From a virus (lineage: Duplodnaviria > Heunggongvirae > Uroviricota > Caudoviricetes), in IMG/VR virus record IMGVR_UViG_3300048503_000086: a stretch of 64,000 bases of DNA. One strand, written 5' to 3'. Made by a program: the position numbers and the translations under genes. Below, one piece after another: positions 1,063 through 43,399 of the stretch. Position 1 is the first letter of the stretch. Each line of letters begins with the position of its first letter. A model generated the notes under the pieces. It was given only the letters and a program-made list of their open reading frames with translations. It did no database searches and was not told where the DNA came from.

Positions 1063-1599
1063 TCAGATTCTCGGGTTCACGTCCAGCACCTTCCCGAAAC
1101 GAGTGAAAGATGCCCTGAAGGAGGGCGCTCTTCGTCCCCAGTACACGAAGCAACAGGACATGGGTGCTCCCTTCTCGACCACCTTGCCAGCCAGCAGGAA
1201 CTTCAGCCGGGGCACCCGCAAGAAGCAAATACTCCTTGCTCTTAGGAACACGTTGTCCTGCCAATGGCGCGTGTTGGTTGCCACGGGGATGAGGGCGATG
1301 ATTTCCGACTCATGTTGCTCGTGGGCATTGCTGCACCTCAGCAGCCATTCTTTGATGCTGGTCCCGTTCGTATTCCTGCCGTAGGGCGGGTTGACGTAGA
1401 TCGTGGGGAAATCCCAGGTCTCTCGCAACCCGTTGTGTTTCGGCAGCTTGTACTCCACTTTCGCTCCGACGAGAGCGTAGTCATTGGAGCACGGGTCAAG
1501 AGCAATCCAGCCACCGAAGAAATCCCGGATGACCTGGACATACTCCGCGGGCGTATTCCAATCCTTTGTTAGTGAGGTGACGTGTCTTCCGGCGGTCAT
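1063..1599 (-). CDS. Phage-type N6-adenine DNA methyltransferase
   Basis: IYVNPPYG (NPPY catalytic motif IV); about 178 aa, a typical size for phage Dam-like methyltransferases. Confidence 0.8.
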   Translation of the reverse strand: MTAGRHVTSLTKDWNTPAEYVQVIRDFFGGWIALDPCSNDYALVGAKVEYKLPKHNGLRETWDFPTIYVNPPYGRNTNGTSIKEWLLRCSNAHEQHESEIIALIPVATNTRHWQDNVFLRARSICFLRVPRLKFLLAGKVVEKGAPMSCCFVYWGRRAPSFRASFTRFGKVLDVNPRI

Positions 1600-1639: not shown

Positions 1640-2533
1640 TCACAGCGCCTTTCCCGCGCGGCGGACGCCGGTTCGGATAAGACGGACTACCATTTCCGCG
1701 TCCTCTACGGCGGTGTGGGCGACTTTGCCCTTGATCCCGGCCCGTTCCATACAGGTCTTCGAGTCGGGCAGCCTTTCGTCCGTGCCGGGCAGCCAGTAGA
1801 AAAGGGTCGGGTCGAGGACGCGGTGGTTCAGCTTGACCGTCTGCTTGAAACCGGGCAGTCTGTCGAGAAACTGCTTGTCGAAGCTGGCAAAGTTCTTGCC
1901 CGCAGGCGTCAAGCTAGTCTTGCCATCCCAGCCCTGCGCCCGCAGCCAGGAGCAAAAGCTCTCGGCAACCTCGCCCGGCGACAGGACGGAGTTGTCGCGT
2001 GGCCCGGACAAACGTTTCAAGATTTTCGCGTTGAGGGCCAGGGCATAGGGCTCGCCGGTGTAGACGGGATGGGCGATGTAGCGGTGGAAGATCGGCAGGG
2101 TATCAAGCATACCGCCATTGTCATAGATGGCCCCGATCTCAAGAATCTGGCAGGTCTCGGGGTCAAGGCCAGTCGTCTCCAGGTCGATCGAGACATAGGG
2201 CATCTTGATCTTGGAGGGCAGTTCCTTGAGGCCCTTGCCGGCGTGGCCGTTCCAATGGCACTGGCAACACTGGAAGATTGCTTCGCTTTCTTCCCGCTGT
2301 GTGAGCACGGCATGGCATACGGGACAGTACATGATGGCCTCGACGACGATGGTGTTATGAGCTGCGAGCACGTCGCGCACCCAGCCTTCGTTCTCGCTGT
2401 GAGTAGCCCCGCAGGCACACGGGCCCACCAGCATGTCGCACGGCGTACTGCCGTTGAAGCGTCTGAAGGTCCAGTCGGCGGGCCAAGGCACCATGCCGCT
2501 GCGCAGATACTTTCGCAGGACTCGTGGGTTCAC
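1640..2533 (-). CDS. DnaQ-like (DEDDh) 3'-5' exonuclease with N-terminal zinc ribbon
   Basis: Exo I motif YVSIDLETTGLDPE; Exo III motif HTAVEDAEMV. N-terminal CxxC...CxxC pairs. GTG start with GAGAGG ribosome-binding site. Confidence 0.8.
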   Translation of the reverse strand: MNPRVLRKYLRSGMVPWPADWTFRRFNGSTPCDMLVGPCACGATHSENEGWVRDVLAAHNTIVVEAIMYCPVCHAVLTQREESEAIFQCCQCHWNGHAGKGLKELPSKIKMPYVSIDLETTGLDPETCQILEIGAIYDNGGMLDTLPIFHRYIAHPVYTGEPYALALNAKILKRLSGPRDNSVLSPGEVAESFCSWLRAQGWDGKTSLTPAGKNFASFDKQFLDRLPGFKQTVKLNHRVLDPTLFYWLPGTDERLPDSKTCMERAGIKGKVAHTAVEDAEMVVRLIRTGVRRAGKAL

Positions 2534-2922
2534 TCTGGGCCTCTCAGAAGTGTCTTGACGGCTTTGTAGTCAGCGTCTACTGTGGCTTTGTGCCACTGTA
2601 CAAAGTTCATTTCGTCCGTGGCGTCGGCCGTTGTAACCGCTATCAACCGTTGCACAGTCTCCATGTCATGCCGAAGCTGCTCAGCGGATAGAATCGCGTT
2701 GATCTGGCCGGTGCCCGGGACAACTGCGGCTTCATATTCCACCAGGAAGGAGGCGGCTAGCTCGCGGTAGATGGCGACCAGGATCTTGAGCCTCTCGCTG
2801 AGTTGCTTTATGCGGACAATGTGCCTCTCACTCAGTCGCACGGTTGCCTGAAAGGTCTCCAGTGCCTTCGTCATTTCCGGTGTGGCAGGTGTCGCTTTAG
2901 GGTCGGAGTCCAGGTTGCTCAT
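2530..2922 (-). CDS. Hypothetical protein (130 aa)
   Basis: Internal ATG at 2922 with GAGGAG ribosome-binding site. The long ORF 2530-4278 upstream of this start is RG-rich off-frame translation. Confidence 0.5.
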   Translation of the reverse strand: MSNLDSDPKATPATPEMTKALETFQATVRLSERHIVRIKQLSERLKILVAIYRELAASFLVEYEAAVVPGTGQINAILSAEQLRHDMETVQRLIAVTTADATDEMNFVQWHKATVDADYKAVKTLLRGPE

Positions 2923-3266
2923 TCCGTTTTCTCCTCGGACTCGTCCAGAGGACCGACCTCGGGGTGCGCGACCCCGAAAATCCTCAGTAGGCTTTCCAGG
3001 CACGAGGCGACGGCCCCTCGAACCTCTTGCATCTCGTGTCGCTCGACGTTGCCGTGTTCGCAGGCCAATTCCACGAGGAGTTCCTTGCGGCAAATGTCCC
3101 GGTACAAGTCGAGTGCCTGCATGACGCTGGTGGCCAGTTCGCCGGTGTGCGGCGGCTTCGTCAGGGCCTCGCACTGGCCGCCCCACCAGCCGCACGCCAG
3201 ACACAAACGGTCTGGCTCGGGCGTCACCTGGAGCGGTTTGCCGCACTTGGGACAGAATTCGCTCAT
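2919..3266 (-). CDS. Zinc-ribbon protein
   Basis: MSEFCPKCGK...CLACGWWGG. Overlaps the downstream gene by 4 nt (ATGA). Confidence 0.5.
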   Translation of the reverse strand: MSEFCPKCGKPLQVTPEPDRLCLACGWWGGQCEALTKPPHTGELATSVMQALDLYRDICRKELLVELACEHGNVERHEMQEVRGAVASCLESLLRIFGVAHPEVGPLDESEEKTE

Positions 3267-3275
3267 GGCGATCTC

Positions 3276-3656
3276 CTACTGGACCGGCCCCATGCCGGGC
3301 CCGACGTTGCGGACCAGGTTCACGTCCTGGATGCCCTTGAAGGTCAGGTTGAACTCGCGGACCGCGCGCTTGAACTCGGGGTCCCCGAAGCGCTGGCGAA
3401 TCTGTGCCAGGGCCAGTTTCACCTTGTCCTTGGAGGCTTTGGCCGCCGCACTCCGGCCGCCCATCGTGCCAGCATCGGTCTTGATCTGCTCCCGCAGGGC
3501 GGCGAGCTGCGCCTTGCCGCGGTCCTTCTGGTTTCCGACCAGCTTGAGTTGGGCGCGGGCCTCGCGCTGACCGCCGCTGGAGGCCGCCGCCTTGAGGGGC
3601 ATTACCACGTCGAGTTTGCGGGCTCGGGCAGGGTTGCTCGCTTTCGCTTTGACCAT
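3276..3656 (-). CDS. Lys/Ala-rich basic protein (possible DNA-binding)
   Basis: 126 aa. AGGAGCC ribosome-binding site upstream of the ATG. Confidence 0.5.
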   Translation of the reverse strand: MVKAKASNPARARKLDVVMPLKAAASSGGQREARAQLKLVGNQKDRGKAQLAALREQIKTDAGTMGGRSAAAKASKDKVKLALAQIRQRFGDPEFKRAVREFNLTFKGIQDVNLVRNVGPGMGPVQ

Positions 3657-3707
3657 TTTCTGGCTCCTGGTTTAGTGGTTTGCTTGTTTCCGGGCGACGG
3701 CATGAAA

Positions 3708-4100
3708 TCACACGCCTAGCTCCCGGAGGGCTTGGACTTCCTCTGCCGTGAGCTTCTTGATCGCTTGCCGCCGGGCTTTGACGAGCCCTTCGTACTCTTT
3801 CGCTTCTTGGCGGAACCGGGCGATTGCCTCTTGGTAGGCTTTGCGGCAGGCTTCCTTCGTCCCTTGGCCGGAGCCTCCGCAGGCGGCGCAGGGTACGGTG
3901 CGTCGGTTTCGGTTGCCTTCGACCGGGTACGGCGGGTCTTGCGGGTCGTAGATCCATCCTCGGCCGGAACAAGCGAGGCAGGGCCACTTGTCGGCAGGGT
4001 GCAGTCCGAGCCAGTGCTGCTTGGTGGCAAACTCTTGCAGACTTCGGTAGGGTCGGACGGGCTTGACATGCTTCCATCCGGTGCTGAAGGTGCAGGGCAT
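3708..4100 (-). CDS. Cys-rich zinc-ribbon protein with helical C-terminus
   Basis: CLACSGRG...CAACGGSG. High third-position GC. GAGGAAG ribosome-binding site 7 nt upstream of the ATG. Confidence 0.5.
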   Translation of the reverse strand: MPCTFSTGWKHVKPVRPYRSLQEFATKQHWLGLHPADKWPCLACSGRGWIYDPQDPPYPVEGNRNRRTVPCAACGGSGQGTKEACRKAYQEAIARFRQEAKEYEGLVKARRQAIKKLTAEEVQALRELGV

Positions 4101-4528
4101 TCGTCTTCCTCTTCGTAGCGCGGCGTGACGTATCGTGTGAGAAGCTCAAAGGTCTTGCGGCTGAGCTTCTTGCGAGCCCACACGGGAATCCCCGTGGGCA
4201 GCTTGCCGAAGATTTCCACCAGGCCCCGCACGCCCGTCGCTTCGCAGGCTTTGGTCCAGAGCCGCTTGTGACGTTCACAGGATTCCCGGGCCTTCGCCAA
4301 GACCTTGAAGAGGCGATGGCCGGAGTCCGTGAAGTCCCACATCGGGAAGTTCTCGCCCTCCTTGCCGCCGAAGTTCGGGACGATGATGCGGACGGTCGCC
4401 TGGTAGCGGCCAGGCATCCGCACGCCGTCGTACTCTCTGCGCCAGACGATTCGGTATCCGTCTTCGGAGAGCCAGGTCCGCCGGACCTTTCCCTTCTGGC
4501 CGCGTTTCTTCTTACGCGTGAACTCCAT
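3716..4528 (-). CDS. Hypothetical protein. The globular N-terminal ~145 aa looks real; the C-terminal half overlaps 3708-4100 in another frame and looks off-frame.
   Basis: MEFTRKKKRGQKGKVRRTWLSEDGYRIVWRREYDG... with GGGGAG ribosome-binding site. The S/P/K/R-rich tail begins exactly where ORF 3708-4100 starts. Possibly one gene split by a frameshift. Confidence 0.35.
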   Translation of the reverse strand: MEFTRKKKRGQKGKVRRTWLSEDGYRIVWRREYDGVRMPGRYQATVRIIVPNFGGKEGENFPMWDFTDSGHRLFKVLAKARESCERHKRLWTKACEATGVRGLVEIFGKLPTGIPVWARKKLSRKTFELLTRYVTPRYEEEDECPAPSAPDGSMSSPSDPTEVCKSLPPSSTGSDCTLPTSGPASLVPAEDGSTTRKTRRTRSKATETDAPYPAPPAEAPAKGRRKPAAKPTKRQSPGSAKKRKSTKGSSKPGGKRSRSSRQRKSKPSGS

Positions 4529-5709: not shown

Positions 5710-6984
5710 TCATGGCCCCTCCCAGATGGCCCGATGGACGTAGCCGCTGCGGATCAGCCCGTGTTCCGCCGCGATCTTTTCGCAGTAGCCCCTGTCGATC
5801 TCGAAAAGGGAGCAGGGCAGGCCGAGACGTTTACACACTCTCAGCGTTGTCCCCGTACCGGCGAACGGATCGACCACGACGCCCCCGGGCGGCGTCGTCA
5901 GCTTCAGGCACCGTTCGACCAACCCCTCGTTCAGTTGGGTCGGGTGCCACGGGCGGCGCTGCTTGCTGTTGCCCGTCACCCGGGTGAAATTGAAGACATC
6001 GCTTAGCGACAAGTCACCAGTGACGTGCTGCCATGTCTTCCCGTCCTTGATGCTGCGAATGTTGGCCTCCGTGACGCCGTATTGTTTGGCAAGATCGACC
6101 AGGCGGTCGGCTGATTGGTAGATATGGATTACATTTTCGGTTGTCAGTTTCGTCAGTCCATTGGCTTCGCCGGTTGGATGCTGTCCTCGTCGCTTGATTT
6201 CCTTGTCACGGTTGTTGTCTCCATCTGATCCAATGAATAGATGGTTGGGATTACAGCAGCCAGGGTTGTCACAGGTGTGCAATATAAGCTGGCCGATGGG
6301 GTCAACTCCGTGTGTCAGTCGCCACATCAGACGTGTGGCGACGTATAGCTGTTCACCGATGCGAAAGCGGCCGTAACCCGCACGCTTACCGGCAGTCCAC
6401 TCCCAGCAGTTTTCCTCATTGCATCGGTCTATTTTCGCCAGGAACCGTTCAACATCCTGCGCGGTCCAATTCGGCAGCGGCAGTGTATCACGCTCACCGT
6501 AAGCAAAGTGAGCCACATCGCCTGGCACCCGCCCGCGGGGATCAGCACGCTTGTCGCCGTTCTCCTGCCGCCAACTTGGCACGCGGATGGCGTCCGGGTA
6601 GAGCGGGGCGTCGGACCAGCGAAGTCGCAAGAGCGGCCGATGGTTGTTGCCCAGGTCGTGGTGGCTATGCTGACCGAAAGTGAACGTCTGGACGCAGGGC
6701 TTGGCCTCGATCGCGCTGCCGTGCTGGCCCTCGATCTCGGTCACGATGCGGCCTACTTGGAAGGTCCATTTCGCGTTGTAGGAGAGCCATACCGTCTTTG
6801 CCCTCGTGATGAAGCAGTTGAGCCAGCCGCGGAGCAAGTCGATGTAATCGCTCTCGGTGCGACGATCCCTGTAGGTGTCGTAGCCCAGGCCGATGTTGTC
6901 CGGCGGATCGGCGAACAAGGTGTCCACCCGATCTGCCCCGGGCATCCACTCCATGCAGTCAGCATTGACAAGCGAGTATTTCAT
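5710..6984 (-). CDS. Beta-class DNA methyltransferase (N4/N6 family) with an inserted HNH endonuclease domain
   Basis: FADPPDNIG (motif IV) at the N-terminus and VVDPFAGTGTT (motif I) at the C-terminus. Between them: CWEWTAGKRAGYGRF...HTCDNPGCCNPNHLFIGSDGDN (HNH). The true start is the internal ATG at 6984 (MKYSLVNADCMEWM), which overlaps the upstream stop (ATGA). Confidence 0.8.
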   Translation of the reverse strand: MKYSLVNADCMEWMPGADRVDTLFADPPDNIGLGYDTYRDRRTESDYIDLLRGWLNCFITRAKTVWLSYNAKWTFQVGRIVTEIEGQHGSAIEAKPCVQTFTFGQHSHHDLGNNHRPLLRLRWSDAPLYPDAIRVPSWRQENGDKRADPRGRVPGDVAHFAYGERDTLPLPNWTAQDVERFLAKIDRCNEENCWEWTAGKRAGYGRFRIGEQLYVATRLMWRLTHGVDPIGQLILHTCDNPGCCNPNHLFIGSDGDNNRDKEIKRRGQHPTGEANGLTKLTTENVIHIYQSADRLVDLAKQYGVTEANIRSIKDGKTWQHVTGDLSLSDVFNFTRVTGNSKQRRPWHPTQLNEGLVERCLKLTTPPGGVVVDPFAGTGTTLRVCKRLGLPCSLFEIDRGYCEKIAAEHGLIRSGYVHRAIWEGP

Positions 6985-7661
6985 GTTGGGTCCAGTGCGG
7001 TCTCCGGCAGGAAGTAGTGGGAGCCGATGCCCTTGACGTTGAAGATCAGGATCTCTGCGTGAAACTCCACACCGGGGAACGTGTCCAGCGGGAGCGACAC
7101 GATGCTGGTCAGCTTGGCACCGCAATCCCGCAGCCATCGCCAGCGGGTGCTCTTGCGCCGTTGATTGAGGCGCATCCCCATCGGTGCGAACATGACCGTT
7201 GGCGTCCCGTACCCGAACAGCGTGAACGTGTGCTCCAGGAAGACCTCCGGGTACAGCCTCCGGCCGCTGGCCCCGTTGAAGGGCGGATTGCAGAGTACGA
7301 GATCCGGGCGCACCATGTCCGTTTGATCTTCATACCGGCCGTGACAGAACTCATTGCAGTAGGCGCTTCCTCGGTCGTCAATGTCGCAGCCGTAGATGTA
7401 GTGGCCGCCGTTGACCCAAGGGGCGGTCAATCGGCCGGTGCCAATGGCCGGGTCCAGGACAAGATGGAACGAATCCCGGCAGCGACCGCCCCCGGCACAC
7501 GGCCCGCGAGCGGCTCGCAAGGGCCGGGCATTGCACAGCGTTGTGTAAAGGAACTGTGCAACGCTGCTCGGCGTGTAGATGTCGCTCCGCTTCGGGTTGG
7601 CGGTGTAGTCGTTTCGTTTGACGGTCAGCGGGCTCACCATTACTTTGTCTCTTCGGACCAT
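6981..7661 (-). CDS. Gamma-class N6-adenine DNA methyltransferase
   Basis: LDPAIGTGRLT (motif I) precedes LVLCNPPFNGASG (motif IV). Start ATG at 7661, or at 7640 (TAATG coupling). Confidence 0.75.
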   Translation of the reverse strand: MVRRDKVMVSPLTVKRNDYTANPKRSDIYTPSSVAQFLYTTLCNARPLRAARGPCAGGGRCRDSFHLVLDPAIGTGRLTAPWVNGGHYIYGCDIDDRGSAYCNEFCHGRYEDQTDMVRPDLVLCNPPFNGASGRRLYPEVFLEHTFTLFGYGTPTVMFAPMGMRLNQRRKSTRWRWLRDCGAKLTSIVSLPLDTFPGVEFHAEILIFNVKGIGSHYFLPETALDPT

Positions 7662-14924: not shown

Positions 14925-15307
14925 CAGTCTTCGTCGCCCTCTTCCTTGGCAACGATGTCTAATGCCTCCCCCATCAGGTACTCGGCCGCCAGGGCTCCGG
15001 CCTTCTCGACGAGGACGGCGGCCCAGTGGACGATCAAAGGCTGGTCGTCGTTCAGCTTGGCCTCCTCCAAAGTGACCAGGGCTTCCAGGACCAACTTGCC
15101 TTTCTTGGTGAGATGGCCGTCATCCAGGGCGTGGGCGTCGTTTTCCTCTTCCTGGAGGGTCAGGATATTCTCCAGGGTGGCCTCAAGCTGGGCGTCCTGT
15201 GACTCCGTGGCAGCGGCCCCGCAGCCGTTACGTTGCTTCATTGCCTCCAAGAGTCCCTGGGCCTTCGTCCAAAGCTGGATCACTTCGCGTAAGGTCGCTT
15301 TATTCAT
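14924..15307 (-). CDS. Acidic hypothetical protein
   Basis: Internal ATG at 15307: MNKATLREVIQLWTKAQ... Its stop and the Dam start overlap (TGATG). Confidence 0.5.
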   Translation of the reverse strand: MNKATLREVIQLWTKAQGLLEAMKQRNGCGAAATESQDAQLEATLENILTLQEEENDAHALDDGHLTKKGKLVLEALVTLEEAKLNDDQPLIVHWAAVLVEKAGALAAEYLMGEALDIVAKEEGDED

Positions 15308-15893
15308 GGCTCGCCTCAAAGGTGAAAGTGGAGTCGATCTGGTTTCCCCATTGATCCCAGCCTGGCCGCGGCCTGCGGGCAAACAGTTCCAGGTAAGGCC
15401 CGGGGCTCTGCTCTTCGATCAGGTCGTAGAAGAAATCGGGCTTGACGCTGTGCGGTGCCCGCGGCAACAAGTAGGCTGTCGGCCGGCACGGGCCCGCCAG
15501 ACGCAGGCTTCCACGCACTGCGAACAGAAGATGCTCTGTCGCACTGCGGTAGTAGTAGCCGGTCTTCATCGACGGGCTGCCGTCCGCCTTCACCTTCACC
15601 CAGGTCAGCACCGTCTTGGGAACAAAGCCCCAGGCCCCTACAATCTCATGTGCTTCAACCAGGAACGAGTTGGTGGTCCACAGGTACAGGTGGGCGGCAT
15701 TTACTGCCGCCTCTCGCACCGGCAGGGCTTCGATCTCGCGGATGGACATGCTGCCGTAGCGGCCGGCAGAACTCACCGAGCCGGTCACTTTGTTCCAACT
15801 ATTCGGCCGATGGCCTGGAGCAGCCCGTGGACCGTCCACGTTGTCGTAGGGCCACGGCGGGTCGGCGTAGATGGTGCTATACATGGTGGCCAT
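15300..15893 (-). CDS. MT-A70 family N6-adenine methyltransferase
   Basis: IYADPPWPY (DPPW motif). Internal ATG about 15893. Confidence 0.8.
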   Translation of the reverse strand: MATMYSTIYADPPWPYDNVDGPRAAPGHRPNSWNKVTGSVSSAGRYGSMSIREIEALPVREAAVNAAHLYLWTTNSFLVEAHEIVGAWGFVPKTVLTWVKVKADGSPSMKTGYYYRSATEHLLFAVRGSLRLAGPCRPTAYLLPRAPHSVKPDFFYDLIEEQSPGPYLELFARRPRPGWDQWGNQIDSTFTFEASHE

Positions 15894-15894
15894 G

Positions 15895-16125
15895 TCAAAG
15901 TTGCATCGCGCTCTTGTAGTAGCAGGCAGGGCACAGGACAACCGGCGTGTCATCGTCAGCGATGTTGGCGTCAAAGGGATCGGCAATCGGGATGGCATCG
16001 ACGCCAATTAGCAGGGCTCCGCAGTCCCGGCAGCAGCCCTCCAGGTCGCGGAGGTCGATCCAAACGCAGCGGAAGGCCGCCGGATCGGCTTCGTACCCCA
16101 GGTAGGCCAGCTCGCCCTTTTCCAC
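15895..16125 (-). CDS. Small zinc-ribbon protein (paralog A)
   Basis: GTG start preceded by AGGAGG. GCCRDCG...CPAC. Paralogous to 16127-16375. Confidence 0.5.
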   Translation of the reverse strand: MEKGELAYLGYEADPAAFRCVWIDLRDLEGCCRDCGALLIGVDAIPIADPFDANIADDDTPVVLCPACYYKSAMQL

Positions 16126-16938: not shown

Positions 16939-17921
16939 TCATAGGGCGACTTGCTGAGTTCTTTGGATTCGTTGAAGGGCTTGCTCGTACACGGCCTGGT
17001 TGATCTCGGCGGCAAATGCCATTCGGCCGGCTTCCCCCGCCGCAATCGAGGCGGTGCAAAGGCCGCCGAACGGCTCCCACACCACGTCGCCCGGGTCCGA
17101 GCAACTTTTCACGAGCAACTGCATGAGTGCGAGCGGCTTCTGGTTGGGATGGACCACGCTGCCCTGGACCTTGATCCGTTCCTTGCCGCGCACCGCCGGG
17201 ACGTGCCAGACGTTGGTTACCCCGGCTTCACAGTGAAACTTCCCGCGAAGCTGCTCCCACTGTGAAGCCGCAAGGCTCGTCTCGCCGTCAACCGAAAAAT
17301 AGGGACGGCCCGAGGGGTCGCCGTGCGTGTTGGCGTAGTCCACCAGCCGTTGGAACACGTCGGGCGGCGGGAAGTACCACAGATAATCGCTGGTGAGATA
17401 CTTGCGAGTGGCGGCGTTCTTCACGCCGCACGCCTCGTTCGACTTGGCGAGAGGCAGTCCGGTCCGCCGCCATTCCGCCCGGAGCCACTGCTGGGCAGAA
17501 AGCGGAGAGTCCGCGGCGGTCAATCGGAACTGGGGTTGCCGGACGTAGTGGACGCATACCTCGGTGACAACGGGGAACTTCCGCAGCGTTTGCGTGTTCG
17601 TGTTGCCGGCGACGTGGGCCAGACCCTTGTCCCAGACGCAGCACGCCGGTAAATCCAGCCCGCGTCCCGCAGGACGGGGTGGACTTCCGCCCAGCCGACC
17701 TCCGTGTTCCATAACCAAAGCGTCGTGCTCGCGGTAGCACGGCGGGTCCATGCCGCAACGTGCGGCTCGTACCACTGGCGGAGTTGCTCCGGCCGTGCGA
17801 GGTCGCCGTCGTAGCCGCTGAGACCGTAGGGTCCATCGGAAACGATGAGCGCCGGCGAGTCCCACTGATCGTAGAAGATCAGCGCGTCCCCACGGCAGAG
17901 ATGGATCAAGGCGTCATTCAT
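16939..17921 (-). pseudogene. Beta-class N4/N6 DNA methyltransferase split by a frameshift near 17640-17655
   Basis: N-terminal part (frame of ORF 17520-18038): MNDALIH...SDGPYGLSGYDGD...TLWLWNTEVGW. C-terminal part (frame of ORF 16939-17865): ...CVWDKG...HPNQKPLALMQLLVKSCSDPGDVVWEPFGGLCTAS. The two frames overlap about 135 nt with no stop. Confidence 0.6.
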
Positions 17922-18094: not shown

Positions 18095-19096
18095 ATGCCT
18101 CGTACCGCTGCACGGAAAGTTGTCTACAGGCCGTTGGTCCATCTGCCTCCGTTGTCTGCCGAAGACTGCGAAGGACTCCGGGCGTCGATTGCCGTAAGCG
18201 GCGTCGTAGTGCCGATCGTCGTCTGGCCAAAGGGCAAGACCAGATTCGTCATCGACGGCTCCTATCGGAAGAAGATCGCGGATGAGCTAAGCTACGAGTG
18301 TCCTGAACTGGTCCGCTCTGATCTCACCGAGGAAGAGGCTCGGATCATGGCTCGCGCCTTGAACCTTGCCCGTCGCCAGCTTGATCGAGGGCAGAAACGT
18401 CAAATCATTGCAGACCAAGTCGAAGAAACACCCGATCGTTCGGCCCGCTGGGTCGCCAAGATGCTCGGTGTCAGTCCCCAGACTGTCGCCAGTGTCCGCG
18501 ACGAACTCCGACATAACTGTGCAGGTGCTCAAATTGAGCACCTGCACAGTTGTGTCGGTGGGGATGGCAAGTCTTATCCCTCTCATTCCTTGTCAGCGGA
18601 CATTGATCGTGTTACGCCAGTCAATCACGAACGCTACACGCCTCCCGAATTGACGAGCATGGTTCAGCGCGCCTTGTGCAAGATCGACCTCGATCCAGCT
18701 TCCAGTCGGGAGGCGAACAAGACCGTTAAGGCTGCATCCTTCTTCACGAAACAGATGGACGGGCTAAAGCAGCGGTGGCGCGGCTGCGTCTTTCTCAATC
18801 CGCCTTTTGATAATTGGCCTGCTTGGGTGGCAAAGCTGGATCAGGAAATCAAGGCCGGCCGCGTGAAGCAGGCGGTCGTTATCGGTCCGGCCAACATCTC
18901 GGCGTTTCGACCCTTGCTCAAGCACGGCGGCTATCTTTTCCTCCCGAATGAGCGGCCCAAATACTACAGTCCGGGCGACGATAAACGGATTGACCCTCCC
19001 TTTGGCTCCCTGATATGTTACGTGGGGCCAAAGCCAGCCCGTTTTCTTTCGGTGTTCGGCAAGCAGGGGTTGATCCTCAAGGCAGTCAGGCCCTGA
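18095..19096 (+). CDS. Fusion of ParB-like N-terminal domain with phage-type N6-adenine methyltransferase
   Basis: N-terminus VVPIVVWPKGKTRFVIDGSYRK (ParB/Srx fold); central HTH; C-terminus CVFLNPPFDNWPAWV (NPPF motif). The only plus-strand gene in the 1-42 kb block. Confidence 0.8.
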   Translation: MPRTAARKVVYRPLVHLPPLSAEDCEGLRASIAVSGVVVPIVVWPKGKTRFVIDGSYRKKIADELSYECPELVRSDLTEEEARIMARALNLARRQLDRGQKRQIIADQVEETPDRSARWVAKMLGVSPQTVASVRDELRHNCAGAQIEHLHSCVGGDGKSYPSHSLSADIDRVTPVNHERYTPPELTSMVQRALCKIDLDPASSREANKTVKAASFFTKQMDGLKQRWRGCVFLNPPFDNWPAWVAKLDQEIKAGRVKQAVVIGPANISAFRPLLKHGGYLFLPNERPKYYSPGDDKRIDPPFGSLICYVGPKPARFLSVFGKQGLILKAVRP

Positions 19097-33842: not shown

Positions 33843-35161
33843 TTAGCCACGCAGGAGTCCAACGTCCCGGCCGCCGTCGATCAGGTAGCGCTTGGGACCA
33901 TTCTTCTCGGCTGCGTGCCTCAGCTTGCAGTTGAGACGCCACGTCACACCATGCTTCGGATTAACGCCGTGGAGCCATTGGGCCGGCTCGCGGTAGCCAG
34001 AAAACGAGTTGTAGGAATAGCTATCGGTGCCGACCCAGGCACCGTTTACCATCATTTCGCCATCAATGTCCGAGAGGGTTGCGGCGGCATGATGGTGGCC
34101 AATGCAGTAGTACCGAATGCGCTGGCCGCCGGCCGCCGCACCCAGGGCGACGAGGCCCTTTTGCCGGCGGACCAACCCGTACCAAGGAATTCCGAGGTTC
34201 CCCCGCACATCGTCACCGTGCGCGACATTGAAGCCCACGCCGCCGATATTGATGTTGGCCGACCAGGCATCAGGAATCTGGAAGCTGACGTTCTCCAAGC
34301 CGCGGCAATGCAACCGCGCGATCTCGGCGATTAGGTAATCGAAGTTGTCGTGGGCACCGCCGTAGTCCTTCTTGACTGTTCGGCGGCCGTGGTTGCCGGC
34401 CAGGTACAGGACGTTGACACTCTCGAAATGGGCCGCAAGATCGCGCAACATCAGAGCGTGCAACTGACCAATGGCCAGGCAGTTCTTGAACGTGTTGCGG
34501 TAGTAGGACCGCTGCGTGGCGTTGTGGATCTCGCCGCTGGTGAAGTCCCCATAGGCCAGCACCGTCAGCGTGGGGAACTGGAACTTGGGCACCAGGGTGT
34601 CCTGGGTCCACTCGATCACGGTGTCCACCAGCCGCTCGGCGCGGGCACAGGAGATCGGGAAGTTGTACTCCTCCAGGCCGCCCACCTCCTCCGGCCGCAC
34701 GACCTGATCGTGGTGGCCATCCGAGAGGTGCAGCACGCAGGCTTCCGTGATCTGGGCCTTGCGGCGGAAGTCCAGCGCCGGCGGCAGGGCCGTGAAGGGC
34801 TTGATCCGCTGTTCCATCTCACCCACGATGGCCTTGAACAGGCCAGCGACCTTGGCCCCGGCCTTGACCTTCTGCCGCTCGCGGTTCCGCTCGTCGGTCA
34901 GGTGAACGATCTCCGACTCCAGCTCCAGGATGCGGTTGTTCGTCGGATCATAGTCGGGCTCCGGCTTCCGCTGACCGCCGGCCTTCTTGGGACAGGGTTG
35001 CGCATCGTCGGGCCAGGGCACATCCTTGTGGAGGCGGCCGGTGGCGATGTCCGAGACCACCGAGCGGCTGACCTTGAATTGCTTGGCGATTCTTGGCTGG
35101 GTGACCCCTCGGCCACTTGTGCCTTGATGGCGGCGACTCTCTTATCGGATAACTTCGTCAT
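33843..35161 (-). CDS. Metallophosphoesterase (Mre11/SbcD-like or phosphatase) with an N-terminal HTH that is disrupted by a 1-nt frameshift in a C4 homopolymer near 35105-35108
   Basis: VLHLSDGHHD, AYGDFTSGE, LAGNHG, HGDD, GHHH. Upstream frame gives MTKLSDKRVAAIKAQVAEG, then the shifted frame gives VTQPRIAKQFKVSRSVVSDIATGR (HTH). Confidence 0.6.
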
Positions 35162-36277: not shown

Positions 36278-36590
36278 TCACACGAGAGCGGTGTCCCGCT
36301 CGACTTCAAGCAGGCTGTCGTATTCGGGGGCCAGCCGAGAAATCAGGGCCTCGTAGAGGATGTCGCCCAAGAGTTCGGCGTCAGACGATTCGCTGCCCAC
36401 CTCTACGTGAACAACCAGGCAGACGCCTTCGTCATGCTCACCGTCGTCGGGAAGCCTGAAGCTGACCGCCTCCACGCGATCCCAGGGGCGACCGTAGAAA
36501 GCTCGCTTCAGGAGCAAGTAATGACGGCGCGAGTCGGGTTGACCTTCCAGTAGCCGTGGTACAGCCGCAGGTCGTAAGTCATGCGGTTCA
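36278..36590 (-). pseudogene. Small hypothetical protein with a 1-nt frameshift near 36520
   Basis: MNRMTYDLRLYHGYWKVNPTR in one frame, then HYLLLKRAFYGRPWDRVEAV... in the next. Confidence 0.3.
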
Positions 36591-36639
36591 TGTCCGGTAC
36601 TCCTCGAACTCGCCTTCTTTCGTGGCGGCGTCGTCCCAA

Positions 36640-39600
36640 TCAACGCCTTCCATCACTTCGCCCATCGTCATCAGCTCCAGCTTCCGGTTGGCGCGGATCA
36701 CGTCGAGCACGCGGCCGTCGCTCGGCAAATGGATCAGATCGACGATGGTGCAGCCCAAGTTCATCGTCCATGCCCAATGCGATGGATGCGGTCCTCGCTC
36801 TGGTGCGGTATTCCGGCTTATAGGAGTTGGACCAGTAGACCGCCATGCGGGCCTCCACCAGCGTCAGGCTCATGCCGCCCGACTCGGGATTGGCCACGAA
36901 GGCAACCGCGATGGTTCACCTCCCTGTTGGCCCAGTAGTCCAGCGGCTCTTCCGTCACGGGCGAGTCATGGGCTGTCGTGCGGCAGGACTTGGAAGTTGC
37001 CCTGGTCGCAGCGCACCACGTCCCACTTTTCCTTCACACAGCTTGACGATGCGATCCACCGAGCCGGTGAAGCCGGCGAACACCACGATGCGGCCCGTCT
37101 CCTCGTTCTCGTCCAAGAGCATCTTCAGGCGGCGTCCTTCGGGCAGGCAACCTCGCGGGTCGTGCGGACCATCTTGGCACTTCCTTCGTGCCGCCGCACG
37201 CGGGCAGGCACCGTCTGCTTGACCAGCCGGGCCTATGACCTCTTCCGGGAGCAGATCGATGCCGGGATAGACGTGGCTCCGGGTCTTCCGGGTCCAGCCA
37301 GATCCGTCACCGTGCCATCCGTGCAATGCGTGCAGCGGGTCATGCCGTCCTGCTGCCTCGCGGTACTGGAAGCCGTCGCTCAGCTCGCGCAGGAGGTCAT
37401 GCCCGTCACGGCGTTGGGTGCCGCTTCCACAAGGGCCTCGGCCACGCGCAGTGTGCTGGCGGTCGGCTTGCAGACGATCTTGCGGTATCGCTTCTCGGGC
37501 AGGTCAGGCAGTCCTTCTTGTGCTTGATGACCACCAGCCCTTGAGCCGTTCGTAGAGGTAGGCGACCTCGTTCTTGCTGGGCGTGAACGGTGGTACTCGG
37601 GGTCGGTCAAGCCGTCCAGTTCGTGCGGCCCCTCCTCACGACGTCTCGCCGCACTGGCGCATTTCCGATTCGTCGTCCTTCCAGCCGATGCGCTTCTTGA
37701 AGGCCGGTCGTCGAATTGCTGATCGACCATGAAGGCCAGCCGCTCTTCCATCGCCCGGCGGCTGCCCTCGCGCAGGAAGCCGGGCCAGGCGATCTCGCAC
37801 TGGCTCCACCAGTCCACGGGCGTCTTGGGCGACGGCGTGCCGGACATCTCGATCACGTAGCCTGCTCCAGGCCGTACTTCTCGCGGATCATGTCCGCGAG
37901 CTTTGGCAGGCGCGGGAGCGCTGCGAGGTGTCGTTCTTGCACCGGCTCGATTCATCGCCACGAAGGCCGTGCGGGGCAAGGTCTGCGAGCCTCCCACTCG
38001 TCCATCACGCGGACCAGCCCCTCGTAGGTGAAGAACTCGACCTGGAATGCGGTCGAAGGGGAACCCCACATGCGGAACTCGCGCTTGATGTTCGGCAGGC
38101 TGGTCTTCGGGCCGCCCAGAACCAGATCGACGCCCGACTTTCTCGATCACCTCTTGGGCCGGCCAGGGTCTTGCCGGTGCCCATTTCGGCCGCCGAAATC
38201 TGGTAGTGGTAGGTCAGGCCGGCATCGGCCAGGTCCATTTGCATGTCTGCGGCATCAGCGGTCAACGGCCGGTACTCGTGCCGCACCAGCGGCCGGTCGA
38301 ACCAGGCGTAACACGTCCTCGCCGCAGAGATAACCGATCTGGAAGCGGTTGCGCTGGCAGTCGTCCACCGACCAGACCTTTGATCTTGGCGTACTCGCCC
38401 TCGTCGTCGTAGCCGTGGAAGTGCGCGCCGCGCATGGCCTTGACTTCCGCCATCAGCCCATAGCGCGTCTTCGTGCCGACTCTTGCCGTCCCAGAAATAG
38501 ATGCGGCCGTCCTTCTTCTCCAAGGCGACCGGCACGCGAATCCGCGTGCCGCTGGATGTCTGGGCCTCGACTTTCACGGATTCAAGCGACATGCAATCTG
38601 AGGCCTCGGGCGATCTCGCAGTTATGCTCGTCAACTCGACGCCGATCGAGCGGCGGCCGAGCCGCTGGGCGGCCAAGAGCGTGGTGCCGCTGCCGGCAAA
38701 CGGGTCCAGAATCACGCCGCCATCGGGGTCGAAAGCAGCGTGAGCAGAGTATTCCATCAGGGCCAGCGGCTTGACCGTGGGTGGTCGTTGCCTCGTCCCG
38801 CGCTCCTTCCGAGTCGCCTTGGCACAGTAGAAGAACCGGCTCGCTCCGCCTGTGTCGCCGTAGCTCACCTGAACGTCGCCGGCCTTGCCGAGACCGCCGT
38901 GATAGCCGTCGCCGGACTTCGTGCGGACGCAGTTGGTGCCGCTGGTGAGCGTGCCGGTCTGAGCATCCAATTGGCGGCGGCCTCTTCGTCCAAGAGCAGA
39001 TTCGCCGGCCAGCGGCCCGGACTCATGAACTGGGCCCCTTCACGGCGACCGCTTCGATGCTCGACTCAGCCAGCTGTTTGCCGTCAAGCTCGTCCCGTTC
39101 CGCGCGTTGTACTTGTAGCCGGGGTTTCGCCGATGCGGGAGGCGTCGATGTTCATGCCCGCCACGCCCCAGGTCAGGGCGTTGTGGGCAATCGTGCCGTC
39201 CAGCGGCTTCATCGCCAGGACGATTGGCTCCCAGGCCGGCTTCAGGGCCATCGCCCAGCCGGTCCACCTCGCGGCCTCGGGAGTGGCCGGGGCGGTTATC
39301 TGCGCGGCGCGAAGCCGAGCGTCCGTGCCGGGGGCATGGAGTCCGTTGCCGCCGCCGTAGCACCCGTTCCCCTTGCCCTCGTGCAAGTGATAGCCGGGAC
39401 GGTCCAGCTTGTCGCCAATGACCTCGCGCTCCGCGCCTTTCGACTTGTCGATCAGCTTGCCGATGTCGCCGCACTTGGGCATCCCCTGCCCATAGAGCCA
39501 CATCAGCGCGTCCCGAATCTCCCAGCCGGCGTCTTCGATTGCACAGTCAGCCGGTGATAGGTCCGCGTGCCGCCAAAGGCGAGCAAGAGCACCGGGCTTG

Positions 39601-39792
39601 CACACGCGGGCAATGGCCCGCCAATACTCGGGTCCGGGAACCTCGTGGTCCCAGTCCTTCTCCATGAAGCTGAGTCCGTAGGGCGGGTCCGTCACCACGA
39701 AGTCCACCGCACGCCTCGGGCAAGGCCGGCAGCACATCGCGCAGATCGCCGTCGTAGAGGGCGATGTTGCCGTCTGTGTGGTAAGGTCTCAA
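36640..39792 (-). pseudogene. Remnant of a large fusion of a beta-class DNA methyltransferase with an SNF2-family helicase (resembling the P1 anti-restriction protein DarB), broken by several frameshifts
   Basis: Pieces in different frames: MRPYHTDGNIALYDGDLRDVLPALPEA | AVDFVVTDPPYG...NIDASRI | SRFFYCAKA...HPTVKPLALMEY...ILDPFAGSGTT | AAEMGTGKT (helicase motif I) | MSGTPSPKTPVDWWSQ (SNF2 motif III region) | LLDENEETGRIVVFAGFTGSVDRIV (helicase C). Confidence 0.5.
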
Positions 39793-39879: not shown

Positions 39880-40407
39880 TCAACGATTTCTCTTGTCTTC
39901 CAGGTAGAAGGTCTGCTGGTCCGGCGCGGTCCGGGCGCAGAAGTCGGTCCACACGCTCAAGTCCGCAGCCTCAAAGAGGGTGAAGATCCGGTTGAAGCAC
40001 TGCCGCACCGGCATCGTGGCAGTCGGATCGCTGCCCGATCTGACGGCATCCCGCCACTGGGCCAACGTCCCGGTTATGACGGCAATCTGGATGTTGTTGG
40101 CAATCGTGTTCGCCACGACGAAGGGCATACCCGCAGCACACTGCAAGATCGCCAGCATGTCGCGTTCGTCGGCGGCAACGAAGACACTGAAGCTGACGTG
40201 GGCAAGTAGACTCGGGACAAAACCCACCGGAGCCTTGGCGTCGCGCATCGCCGCCAAGTAGCTCAGAAAACGCTCGGCATCCGACAACTCACGCGGGCAC
40301 AAGTCGGCCTTGTCCGTCAGGCTGTACCCCAGCGCGCGGTGGCTCAAGCCCAAGAAGGTCGTGAAGTCGATGGTCGGCTTGTTAATCAGGACGGCATCCG
40401 GCTTCAT
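39880..40407 (-). CDS. Hypothetical protein
   Basis: Internal ATG at 40407: MKPDAVLINKPTIDFTTFLG... Confidence 0.5.
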   Translation of the reverse strand: MKPDAVLINKPTIDFTTFLGLSHRALGYSLTDKADLCPRELSDAERFLSYLAAMRDAKAPVGFVPSLLAHVSFSVFVAADERDMLAILQCAAGMPFVVANTIANNIQIAVITGTLAQWRDAVRSGSDPTATMPVRQCFNRIFTLFEAADLSVWTDFCARTAPDQQTFYLEDKRNR

Positions 40408-40443
40408 GGCACTGCGACCCCGCAAAGGAGGAAAAAAGACAAT

Positions 40444-40552
40444 AGACACCGCCGGGACTCGAACCCGGACGCACCGAAAGCTGACGACGAGGCTTTATGG
40501 GATGAATCTGTGTGCTCGCGCAGACGGTGTTGCTGCCTTACAACACGGTGTC
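40444..40552 (-). other. tRNA-like element: canonical T-arm plus a 7-bp acceptor pairing, but 109 nt with no clear anticodon arm. Possibly the 3' end of a host tRNA (attachment-site core) or an unusual tRNA.
   Basis: Minus strand: ...GGTGCGT-CCGGG-TTCGAGT-CCCGG-CGGTGTC-T. The 5' strand GACACCG pairs with CGGTGTC about 100 nt upstream. Confidence 0.25.
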
Positions 40553-40752
40553 TTCGAGGGCCGCAGGCGGTGCGCGCCGCCTGCGGCTGCGGACGAAAGA
40601 CCCACCGAGAGTGAGCGTGCCCTGTGGCAGAGGCCCGATGGGTTTACTGATCTACTCGCCCATGATGCACGTCACCGTCGAACGGGAGCGGTGCGGCGAG
40701 TGTGATAACCCTGCCGGCGGCCTTGCGGCTGACCCGGCAGGGAGCCGATGCG

Positions 40753-41493
40753 CTAGCGGGCGCGGGCCTTCTTGCCCTCGGGCTCCTTCACGGTCTCGAC
40801 GCCATCGCCCTTGCAGTTGATGAACCGCGTGATCTCCTTCACGATCTGGTCCTTCGAGGGCAGCTTGGGGAACGGCTGGGCGCACTTCACGATGACGGGC
40901 ACGTGCCAGGAATACGTGCCCTTCTCGACGAGCCGGCTCTTGAGCGTCAACGGCAGCGGGCCGTGGGGCTCCAGGTCGGCGACATCGTTGCCAGCGGCCT
41001 TCTGGCGGGCGATGTCGGTGGCCGTCAGCGGCAGGAACGGGTAGACCTTCTTGGCTTCGCTCCGCGTGCTCTTCGTGCCGCAGAAGAACTCCAGGAAGCG
41101 GTTGGTGCTCCGCTCGTAGACGAGGAAGCTGGGGCCGTACATGCAGTGCGACTCCTTTTCCAGCGACTGCGCCGCGATCCGCTTGAACTCATCCGACTCG
41201 GGATCGTAGTTGACGATCAGGGCGTCGCTGTCGGTCATGTCGATGGCCTTCGGCCGGCGTGCCAGCGGGATGATGTGGATGGTGTCGGTCAGGTCGGCGA
41301 CCTCTTCGCCATCGGGAATGCCGTAGTGGCCGGGGCGGACCTGGCCCTTGTTGACGGCCTTGCCCTTGGTGTACAGTTGCAGGCGGCCGATGAAGTCGGC
41401 GCTCTTGGCCAGTTCGATGAACTGATCGTCAGTTCCGAGCTGGGTGGAGGGAAGTTGCGCAAGATCGACGGGGACCAGCGAGCTGTCGGACAT
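40753..41493 (-). CDS. Hypothetical protein (246 aa)
   Basis: ORF track. Confidence 0.5.
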   Translation of the reverse strand: MSDSSLVPVDLAQLPSTQLGTDDQFIELAKSADFIGRLQLYTKGKAVNKGQVRPGHYGIPDGEEVADLTDTIHIIPLARRPKAIDMTDSDALIVNYDPESDEFKRIAAQSLEKESHCMYGPSFLVYERSTNRFLEFFCGTKSTRSEAKKVYPFLPLTATDIARQKAAGNDVADLEPHGPLPLTLKSRLVEKGTYSWHVPVIVKCAQPFPKLPSKDQIVKEITRFINCKGDGVETVKEPEGKKARAR

Positions 41494-41585
41494 GAGTGTG
41501 CCTCAGAGTTGAAACGAGAATAGGGGCGTGGACAGGAACAGGAAAAGCAAGCTGCAAACGCGGCCGGTGATGACAGGGTGTTACT

Positions 41586-42494
41586 TCATGGTTCGGTCTC
41601 CTCGGTAAAGTGCCTCCTCATACGCTCCCGTAGCTTTCCTCTCTGCTCTTCAAGACTGTTGGCGTCGAGGTGCATGATCCACTCCAGGCAGGCGTTCCAA
41701 CCGTCGACCGCCGTCCGTGCATTCCTGGCGGCAAGCATCATGGGCCCGGCATCGGGTCTTTCTTTCTCGGCCAGAACTTCCCGCAGGTTGCGAAGGTGGG
41801 CGACGGGCGTGAACTCGTTGTTGAACAGCACGTCCAGCTTTCCTTGCCGCGCCGCCTCGCGCTGCTGCTTAATGAAGGCAGCGACCGTGACCTTGAACAC
41901 GTGGACGGGAGCCGTCCTGGCAAGATCAAGAAACCGGTGCTGTTGGCTGCGAAGGACGCGAGACAGCACGTAGCCCGACATCAAAGGGATCTCCCCGCGG
42001 TCCACGGCCTTCTGCACCTGGGGTTGCAGACGCAGGAGACCCAGTTGCTCTCCGATCCAATGCGGACTCTTGTGGATCAGCCCTTGTAGTCGCGCGTGCG
42101 ACATGCCGGGGTTGGCGTCCAGGATCTTCTTCAACTGCCTTGCAAAGTCGGTTGCCTTGGTGGTCGGCCGTATGGCATTGGCTTGAATCTGCGCGGCCAC
42201 AACCATTTCATCGGTCATGCCGTACCGGACCAGGCAGGGCACAGGCGATAGCTCCAACTCCTGGTAAGCGGTGTAGCGGTACATGCCGTCCACCACTTCC
42301 CACTTGCCGGGAAAACGGGGCGAGGGCCTGACGCAGATCGAGTTCAGCGGGCCGTTGGCCGCCAGCGAGTCTCGCAACTCGATGTACTCCAGCGACTCCT
42401 TTTCCACCAATCGGAGCAGCAGGCGGGTCTCGTGGATGTCGCAGAGCGGAATGTCACGAGACTCGATCTTCACGGTGGACTCCGGGATCAACAA
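41586..42494 (-). CDS. ParB-like nuclease-domain protein
   Basis: ICVRPSPRFPGKWEVVDGMYRYTAYQELEL (ParB/Srx-like N-terminal domain). Confidence 0.7.
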   Translation of the reverse strand: MLIPESTVKIESRDIPLCDIHETRLLLRLVEKESLEYIELRDSLAANGPLNSICVRPSPRFPGKWEVVDGMYRYTAYQELELSPVPCLVRYGMTDEMVVAAQIQANAIRPTTKATDFARQLKKILDANPGMSHARLQGLIHKSPHWIGEQLGLLRLQPQVQKAVDRGEIPLMSGYVLSRVLRSQQHRFLDLARTAPVHVFKVTVAAFIKQQREAARQGKLDVLFNNEFTPVAHLRNLREVLAEKERPDAGPMMLAARNARTAVDGWNACLEWIMHLDANSLEEQRGKLRERMRRHFTEETEP

Positions 42495-42496
42495 CT

Positions 42497-42590
42497 ACAC
42501 CTACAGGAGATGTCAAAAACGGGCGGTTTTTTCAGAAAAGGGGCACCGTTTGTGAAAAAAACACTCGTATCTGACATCTCCTGTAGGTGT
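42497..42590. repeat. Perfect 19-bp inverted repeat (ACACCTACAGGAGATGTCA / TGACATCTCCTGTAGGTGT) flanking a 56-bp AT-rich spacer, in the divergent intergenic region
   Basis: Read directly from the sequence. Confidence 0.7.
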
Positions 42591-42630
42591 AGCTATGCCA
42601 CCGACTTCCACGCCGGCTCTCAGCGCCGGA

Positions 42631-42695
42631 AAGCGTGTAAACGCATCTATCGGGGCTAGACGATCCTCTCTCAAGAGCGTGTAAACGCATCTATC
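42631..42695. promoter_or_regulatory. Two 20-bp direct repeats (AGCGTGTAAACGCATCTATC) spaced about 46 bp, each with internal dyad GCGT-N4-ACGC. Candidate operator or iteron sites next to the primase gene.
   Basis: Read directly from the sequence; lies just upstream of the plus-strand operon start. Confidence 0.5.
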
Positions 42696-42703
42696 AGCCC
42701 ACA

Positions 42704-43399
42704 ATGAAAACAAGACCCATCCCTCCGCTCACACGCAAGGAAATCAACCGATTCTGGTTGCGTGTTGAAATTAGTGGACCTGACGAATGCTGGGAGTGGC
42801 AAAGAAGGAGAGACGACGATGGCTACGGGCTCATAAAGTTCCGCCACAAAATGTTCCGGGCACATCGAGTGGCATTCTTTCTTACCTTTGGTCAGCCGAT
42901 ACCCGACCTGCTCATTTGTCACAGTTGTGATAATCCGGGATGCTGCAATCCGAGACATCTTTGGCAAGGCACGGCAGCAGACAACAATGCTGACCGCAGT
43001 AGAAAGGGCAGAACGAAAAGGCAGCTCGGCGAAGAGCACGGGCTGACAACACTCACGAACGCAATGGTCACTCAGATCCTATTATCTGACGCAACACAGG
43101 TGGCTCTTGCCGGACAGTTCGGTGTCTCCTGTACGTCAATCAAGAACATTCACTGCGGTCGAACATGGGCCAATGTAGCACCTGACACTGCACGCCGGAC
43201 GGTAGGTAGACTGCCATCGCACACCTGTCGCGGTGAAAAGTGCCACACGGCCAAGCTCAAGGCCAGTGACATCCCGCTGATTAGGTCGTCAAAAGAAACA
43301 AACTGCCATCTCGCCGCACAATTCAATGTTTCGGATGTCGCCATCAGCTACGCCCGTAATGGCAAGACCTGGAAGCACGTCGTACAAGGAACGCCATGA
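42704..43399 (+). CDS. HNH endonuclease with NUMOD-like repeats
   Basis: ECWEWQRRRDDDGYGLIKF...HSCDNPGCCNPRHLWQGT. Same HNH type as the domain inserted into the methyltransferase at 5710-6984. Confidence 0.8.
   Translation: MKTRPIPPLTRKEINRFWLRVEISGPDECWEWQRRRDDDGYGLIKFRHKMFRAHRVAFFLTFGQPIPDLLICHSCDNPGCCNPRHLWQGTAADNNADRSRKGRTKRQLGEEHGLTTLTNAMVTQILLSDATQVALAGQFGVSCTSIKNIHCGRTWANVAPDTARRTVGRLPSHTCRGEKCHTAKLKASDIPLIRSSKETNCHLAAQFNVSDVAISYARNGKTWKHVVQGTP

Follow-up and report, generated by a model that had tools for sequence, protein, structure and literature searches.

The window analysed here, a stretch of 64,000 nucleotides (nt) from the virus record IMGVR_UViG_3300048503_000086 of IMG/VR (Caudoviricetes), carries around positions 36588 to 39792 the motifs of a DNA methyltransferase and of an SNF2-family helicase in a reading frame that is broken again and again. 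Hence, it has to be asked whether the phage harbours the decayed remains of a methyltransferase-helicase fusion protein, resembling the anti-restriction protein DarB of phage P1 as the initial annotation had it, or whether the assembled sequence itself is at fault. That annotation had allowed for an error-rich sequence as an alternative, and it is this alternative that the evidence favours: the approximately 45 one-base insertions and deletions (indels) are most likely errors left in the consensus of a metagenome assembly, long-read or hybrid, and they lie over two ordinary phage genes.

All methyltransferase and helicase motifs quoted in the initial annotation can be found again, in order, in minus-strand fragments of 36588-39792 in the list of open reading frames (ORFs), and the reported breakage of the frame is equally real. 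Its extent had been greatly underestimated, however, as the coding frame switches dozens of times and not five, both in a frame plot of the GC content at third codon positions (GC3) and in a Viterbi path based on codon usage. A frameshift-aware protein-to-DNA alignment against intact homologues counted 12-13 frameshifts for the methyltransferase and 30-34 for the helicase, which corresponds to about one per 70 nt and to a total of about 42-47 frame breaks in 3.2 kb, whereas the identical alignment found none in an intact relative. The single shift that had been located before, near 39712, was recovered as an extra G at 39708 that is absent from all intact relatives. Since the remainder of the 64-kb window is occupied by long intact ORFs (including ones of 833, 906 and 1088 amino acids, aa), the damage is local and spans 36513-39708. 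The region of 36-40 kb was also an outlier in a genome-wide codon-usage Viterbi scan, which is otherwise confounded by gene boundaries and by plus-strand genes.

Underneath this damage, two genes rather than one can be recognized. Even when the fragments are roughly stitched into one translation, homologues are found at E = 0, and the closest matches belong to two distinct proteins: for the methyltransferase part they are separate PF01555 proteins ending ...GVELTEHNCEI..., and for the helicase part they are proteins of about 678 aa that carry no Pfam annotation (P0001-P0015) and begin with MSLESVKVEAQTSSGTRIRV, exactly at the window's ATG at 38592. In all intact relatives (L001, L002/L003, L005, L090, L094 and L105) a methyltransferase of 396-412 aa is followed by a separate helicase of 655-678 aa, with the stop of the former and the start of the latter overlapping or a few bases apart. 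The apparent fusion arises because one missing base puts the end of the methyltransferase into the helicase frame. As it stands in the window, the junction reads ...GVELT followed directly by SITARSPEASDC-MSLESVK...; with one base restored it reads ...GVELTEHNCEIARGLRLHVA and then a stop, in agreement with L105 (...EHNCEIARGRLHVA and a stop) and with the relative P0030. The corrected stop and the helicase ATG then overlap by 11 nt, just as in L105. With a stop and an ATG in the corrected window and two genes in every intact relative, the proposed fusion cannot be upheld, and to judge by their sequences the methyltransferase and the helicase are two ordinary, separate and functional-looking genes in a phage replication module.

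If the locus had decayed in nature, traces other than broken frames should be visible. For this comparison the window-specific indels were removed via DNA alignment with L001 and L002, after which the methyltransferase translation is 81% identical to the methyltransferase of L001, with DPPY and DPFAGSGTT intact, and the helicase is 83.6% identical to P0001 (the L001 protein), with the motifs GTGKT, DESS, SGTP, ESGGMSLTL and QSEDRIHR intact. At columns that are invariant in 19 homologues, the corrected helicase shows two private replacements, both of which fall in a variable, poorly aligned stretch, and intact close homologues show 0-3. Neutral decay that fixed even 25 indels should have produced dozens of changes at such invariant positions, which argues against a pseudogene. 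The indels themselves do not look biological either. Almost all of them add or remove 1 nt, insertions and deletions are about equally numerous, and the run length of the affected base equals the background, with about half of the events hitting a run of 1 and runs of 4 or more being spared. A homopolymer or slippage origin is ruled out by these run lengths, and no common sequence context, such as that of a methylation-site artefact, was apparent on inspection of the indel sites. Natural variation among intact relatives, by comparison, amounted to 344 substitutions to 3 indels in one case and to 228 to 1 in another, i.e. about 100 substitutions per indel. As such, both hallmarks of a pseudogene are missing, namely relaxed selection, visible as a loss of conserved residues and a ratio of nonsynonymous to synonymous substitution rates (dN/dS) near 1, and a natural mutation spectrum; with no missense decay and such an indel spectrum, the proposal of a decayed pseudogene is not borne out.

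A direct comparison is provided by a second public contig, Ga0562384_01484 of the JGI (L004/L007/L091), which was recovered by exact-protein look-ups of the flanking genes. Over about 32 kb of flanking sequence it differs from the window by one mismatch and one gap, whereas inside 36-40 kb there are 49 mismatches (substitutions) and 65 gap openings. Such a local excess of more than 1000-fold, made up mostly of indels, is unlike the divergence between two phage genomes; the differences between the two assemblies are confined to the patch and consist mainly of 1-nt indels, as in a patch of assembly or consensus errors. In a protein-referenced alignment, Ga0562384_01484 has 39 frameshifts and the window 47, of which about 25 coincide, among them those at 39708, 38633, 37591 and 36804, while each of the remaining shifts occurs in only one of the two sequences. 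The downstream edge of the patch is formed by one of the private events, a 1-nt deletion in a small gene, where MNRMTYDLRLYHGYWKVNPTRAVI carries on in the other frame as LLKRAFYGRPWDRVE...; the C at 36513 is present both in Ga0562384_01484 and in L005.

The patch does not lie just anywhere in the genome. The window and Ga0562384_01484 share one allele of a polymorphic module, designated X, and eight other contigs carry an intact allele Y in flanks that are identical or near-identical to those of the window (the carriers are listed as L090 and L092-L095 together with the short contigs L096-L099). In the short-read run SRR30280143, these flanks are found with 99.98% identity. Divergence between X and Y starts at 39748 and fades around 36770: substitutions private to L005 (509) are dense between these positions, compared with a single one in 40000-42700, and the indel patch, which runs from 39708 to 36765 with an additional event at 36513, lies within the diverged segment. 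Because X and Y differ preferentially at synonymous sites (dN/dS 0.30, dS 0.53), X must be a real allele; its closest intact relative, about 93% identical, resides in a different phage (L105). A patch composed of X and Y as a chimera is not supported, as the differences private to the window do not lean towards Y. Four short contigs (from Logan, ENA with megahit-style k141_ names, and JGI) end within the first 90-135 codons of the methyltransferase, which is the expected behaviour of an assembly graph at a strain-variable module. Set against L005, L090 and L093-L099, the pair of methyltransferase and helicase genes behaves like a cassette that can be exchanged, its limits falling sharply within the 5' end of the methyltransferase gene and within the 3' end of the helicase gene.

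Patches of this kind were also seen elsewhere. Ga0562384_01484 has a second one in the exonuclease gene (window 33942-35022), with 31 private substitutions, 20 of them at codon position 3, and seven one-base indels disrupting the gene. This patch coincides exactly with a 1.1-kb variant allele of 2.8% divergence, and since 20 of the 31 substitutions are at third codon positions this variant is a genuine allele; the window, L005 and L090 are intact there. A separate and isolated 1-nt deletion relative to L005 (ccga[C]gggg) is found at 35109, 1.4 kb outside the patch, and is common to the window and Ga0562384_01484. It removes the first approximately 17 codons (MTKLSDKRVAAIKAQVAE..., ATG at 35161) of the same exonuclease gene (about 33843-35161, minus strand), which encodes 439 aa in L005, L090 and L092. 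In a related strain, contig_42229 of ENA ERZ25039593 (L092; Flye-style naming), there are 71 one-base indels relative to L090, again in patches. These break the DUF5906 primase, ParB, methyltransferase and helicase genes and leave the trypsin-like and exonuclease genes clean, and their density tends to track the local divergence from L090, with exceptions.

How such a patch could come about may be imagined as follows, the sequencing and polishing history being one that we infer. Within the cassette, the contig would represent a minority haplotype, about 15% different from the dominant one. The shared flanks would be supported and polished by all reads, whereas few reads would support the cassette itself, and divergent short reads could neither map to the minority allele nor polish it. 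Raw-consensus indels would then survive in the cassette, at about 1,450 per 100 kb. Published experience provides a basis for this scenario: in long-read viromes, 474 indels per 100 kb were counted before polishing and 23 after it, with frameshift-shortened proteins still remaining (PMC6487183), and residual frameshifts after short-read polishing have been described there as well as in the proovframe preprint (PMC6487183; 10.1101/2021.08.23.457338). Viral 'genomic islands' that under-recruit reads often encode methyltransferases and anti-restriction functions, and short reads recruit to them poorly (PMC6487183). The patch thus resembles what is seen in long-read metagenome assemblies, where one-base indels truncate genes, polishing is incomplete and the effect is worst in microdiverse or 'genomic island' regions. 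It departs from these cases in its density, which is about 3 times the 474 per 100 kb of the unpolished assemblies while the flanks are essentially perfect here, and in that part of the errors is common to a second public contig.

It is this last property, together with two others, that weighs against consensus errors. Of the 34 helicase frameshifts, 18 are common to the window and Ga0562384_01484, whereas 6.5 would be expected on average by chance (99th percentile 12). Context-driven systematic error as the cause of these shared sites is ruled out, as the noisy assembly of the related strain (L092) shares sites at chance level only. Further, the intact allele X is absent from all collections searched by DNA pattern, protein and locus: exact or gapped DNA patterns for it gave no hit in collections of viruses, genomes and metagenomes, a 26-mer specific to the allele led only to alleles of no more than about 93% identity, a protein-guided locus search returned 85-86% at best, and no close match came from a further protein search with a segment of 228 aa. 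Lastly, the dN/dS of the corrected genes against L001 (0.25-0.33) is slightly above that of intact pairs (0.13-0.22). The approximately 25 shared frameshifts hence remain unexplained by consensus error as such, and real decay keeps some weight. They would be explained if the window and Ga0562384_01484 descend from the same reads or the same draft with different polishing; otherwise they are real. The corresponding explanation is that of genuine pseudogenes, in which allele X was acquired by recombination and then inactivated, so that at least about 25 shared frameshifts are real and sequencing errors come on top. The isolated shared deletion at 35109, outside the patch, could be counted in its favour along with the three points just given. 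Against it stand the two private changes where dozens would be expected, the random positions of single-base indels that are neither varied in size nor biased towards deletions, and the natural ratio of substitutions to indels in this lineage. The approximately 36 private differences, confined to the same patch, would need a local error process anyway, and 3 kb of dead DNA is rarely kept by phages. Overall, we regard genuine pseudogenes as unlikely, and it would be very improbable that the approximately 25 shared shifts record a methyltransferase/SNF2-helicase module that recombined recently and was then ruined almost exclusively by single-base indels. If they did, this would suggest that recombined tracts of phage genomes are subject to a mutagenic process specific for indels.

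One could also speculate that the indels were generated in vivo by local hypermutation, for instance by mutagenic repair synthesis across a recombined tract, and that the differences between the assemblies represent real population variation. Such a process would account for the coincidence of indel patches with recombinant or variant segments in two different genes, and for flanks that stay identical while the patch differs at dozens of sites. It would require a local rise in rate of more than 1000-fold, to about one indel per 70 nt with almost no substitutions, and we know of no process that produces such indel-only local hypermutation. Since the same pattern is the expected signature of a poorly supported consensus over minority haplotypes, and a related noisy assembly shows similar patches, hypermutation appears exceedingly unlikely. 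Finally, sequencing errors might mask an intact DarB-like fusion, an injected anti-restriction factor. A methyltransferase does adjoin an SNF2-type helicase in the same orientation here, and P1 DarB (2255 aa) likewise combines methyltransferase domains (PF02384 and PF07669, Eco57I-type) with SNF2-rel_dom and Helicase_C according to Pfam. However, two proteins are encoded in the intact relatives, with a junction that reappears in the corrected window, so that proteins of about 400 and 670 aa have to be set against a single one of 2255 aa. The methyltransferase belongs to PF01555 and not to the PF02384/Eco57I class, and in BLASTP, P1 DarB gave no significant similarity: E was 0.30 with the intact helicase, over a short motif II-III stretch only, and 0.026 with the methyltransferase, which aligned to a part of DarB that is not methyltransferase. 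DarB is a virion-packaged, injected protein of 250 kDa with an N-terminal capsid-targeting signal that works together with DarA, Hdf, DdrA, DdrB and Ulx (PMC9024508), and tblastn of these five partners against the window yielded nothing below E 0.07. The genes of the window moreover sit among primase, ParB, exonuclease and PolA genes, not among head genes. The chance that a DarB-like fusion lies hidden here is therefore close to nil; the resemblance that had been noted is limited to a methyltransferase adjoining an SF2/SNF2 motor, even if an anti-restriction role of the methyltransferase is plausible in general terms. Consensus errors over two ordinary genes remain the explanation that we prefer, and the coordinates on which it is based are collected in the following table.

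Table. Features of the methyltransferase-helicase region (window coordinates; gene products as expected after frame correction)
Feature	Position	Strand	Description
Indel-rich patch	36513..39708		About 47 frameshifting indels, nearly all of 1 nt; about 25 common with Ga0562384_01484, about 22 private to the window
Polymorphic module	36770..39748		Window and Ga0562384_01484 carry allele X; eight other contigs carry intact allele Y; about 85% nucleotide identity
DNA methyltransferase, beta-class N6/N4 (PF01555)	38582..39792	-	TTG start 39792; corrected stop TGA 38582-38584; about 403 codons after correction
Missing base creating the apparent fusion	38631..38633	-	Shifts the 3' end of the methyltransferase (last approximately 15 codons) into the helicase frame
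SNF2-family (SF2) helicase/ATPase	36588..38592	-	ATG 38592; TGA 36588-36590; about 671 codons after correction
Small downstream gene	36278..36591	-	104 aa in relatives (called in L005, L090, L091); broken by a private 1-nt deletion at 36513

The assignment of the two genes to methyltransferases and SNF2-type helicases, which had been proposed from motifs, was confirmed by profile searches, against Pfam and PHROG for the former and against PHROG and PDB for the latter. Even the uncorrected methyltransferase fragment matches PF01555 with E 4.4e-14 (53.4 bits, cut-off 26.7) and several PHROG DNA-methyltransferase families with E down to 4e-19, and intact orthologues reach E of about 1e-27 (97-98 bits) with PF01555, as well as partial matches to CcrM-type NCBIfam models. 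With DPPY preceding the S-adenosylmethionine (AdoMet)-binding motif FxGxG, and PF01555 above its cut-off, the protein is a beta-class N6/N4 methyltransferase. Like other phage members of this class (PF01555; phrog_67, e.g. the mycobacteriophage 'DNA methylase'), it combines an N-terminal DPPY with a C-terminal FxGSGT AdoMet motif, and only its core shows DNA-level likeness to cultured phages and plasmids, at 66-70%; with the methylases of Mycobacterium, Gordonia and Arthrobacter phages this nucleotide identity extends over about 570 nt. It differs from known phage methylases by a long and variable target-recognition region between the motifs, lengthened by an additional insert of about 170 aa in the relative P0030, and, in the copy of the window, by being unreadable without frame correction. 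Based on its family, the enzyme most likely methylates the phage's own DNA, at N6 of adenine or N4 of cytosine, and thereby protects it from restriction by the host.

The helicase is less easily captured by existing models. Intact orthologues match phrog_62 ('DNA helicase') with E 3.7e-51 and the fragments of the window match it weakly. A profile built from 16 homologues retrieved 27 PDB matches, all of them SNF2-family ATPases (SNF2h, ISWI, LSH, Snf2, Sth1 and the Rad54-like SSO1653 of Sulfolobus), with a best E of 1.8e-6. In Pfam, the scores stay below the gathering cut-offs, namely 13.4-19.5 bits for SNF2-rel_dom (cut-off 24.9) and 15.6 for Helicase_C (cut-off 23.5); a few distant homologues do carry PF00271, and several homologous fragments are annotated as 'SNF2 family DNA or RNA helicase' by JGI. 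Besides the profile similarity, the motifs I (GTGKT), II (DESS), III (SGTP), V (ESGGMSLTL) and VI (QSEDRIHRxG) that are typical of SNF2 ATPases and phrog_62 are all present. The helicase family of the window departs from these by its low Pfam scores, by an identity of only about 25% to the helicases of cultured phages, and by a private N-terminal domain of about 130 aa together with cysteine-rich (CxxC) insertions. Judging from its family and its neighbourhood, the protein is most likely an ATP-driven translocase on double-stranded DNA that aids replication or recombination. Among the homologues P0006, P0010, P0016 and P0020, some are 835-942 aa long and contain intein domains (PF14890 together with PF13392 HNH_3 or PF14528 LAGLIDADG_3), and the family is hence an intein host in some phages. 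A further homologue, P0027, comes from a 3.96-Mb contig (NCBI/ENA) and has internal stretches that resemble an out-of-frame translation between conserved in-frame parts; this may reflect either a prophage copy with frameshifts, in a genome that is nearly complete, or yet another case of assembly error.

The genomic setting is that of a replication module. In the window as in its relatives, the order of the genes is DUF5906 primase, (HNH), ParB_N, a protein of 246 aa, a protein of 175 aa, methyltransferase, helicase, the protein of 104 aa, trypsin-like protease and exonuclease, followed after further genes by Metallophos, ParB and DNA polymerase A. As neighbouring genes match tail-fibre, virion-protein, primase and exonuclease genes, the window represents a phage genome. 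It probably belongs to an uncultivated phage of about 60 kb or more that infects Planctomycetota, a host suggested by the names of relatives (Thermoguttaceae, Planctomycetaceae).

Further observations concern other parts of the window. Methyltransferase-like genes are also located at 1063-1599 (minus strand), 18095-19096 (plus strand), about 16939-17865 (minus strand) and about 15300-16007 (minus strand); on near-identical contigs they are annotated as Dam (PF05869) in two cases, as a PF01555 protein of 312 aa and as an MT-A70 protein. Counting the PF01555 gene at 38582-39792, the phage therefore has at least five methyltransferase-like genes. A protein of 475 aa (5710-7137, minus strand) consists of an HNH endonuclease domain (residues about 216-380) and a C-terminal AdoMet-binding methyltransferase part (phrog_67, residues 378-456), and may represent a methyltransferase that is interrupted by, or fused to, a homing-type HNH. 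Between the divergent ParB_N gene (41586-42494, minus strand) and an HNH-like gene (42704-43399, plus strand) lies an imperfect palindrome of 98 nt (42495-42592; 84% self-complementary), which might serve in regulation, as an origin or as a parS-like site. At 2922-3671 (minus strand), two ORFs with high GC3 (2922-3275 and 3279-3671) share one frame and are separated by one stop codon (3276-3278). A nonsense error, readthrough or simply two genes could be behind this arrangement, which is overlapped in another frame by an ORF of 582 aa (2530-4278) without a PHROG match.

The present analysis calls for caution, in that one-base consensus errors in a strain-variable island of a metagenomic phage contig can mimic a 'decayed fusion gene', a single one of them being enough to make two genes look fused. 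The biology behind it is ordinary, and would comprise a replication module with a self-protective DNA methyltransferase and an SNF2-type helicase, the latter from a family that is widespread in uncultivated phages and still without a Pfam model. As a cassette, the module moves between phage genomes that are identical otherwise, and such cassettes are the spots at which an assembly can be trusted least.

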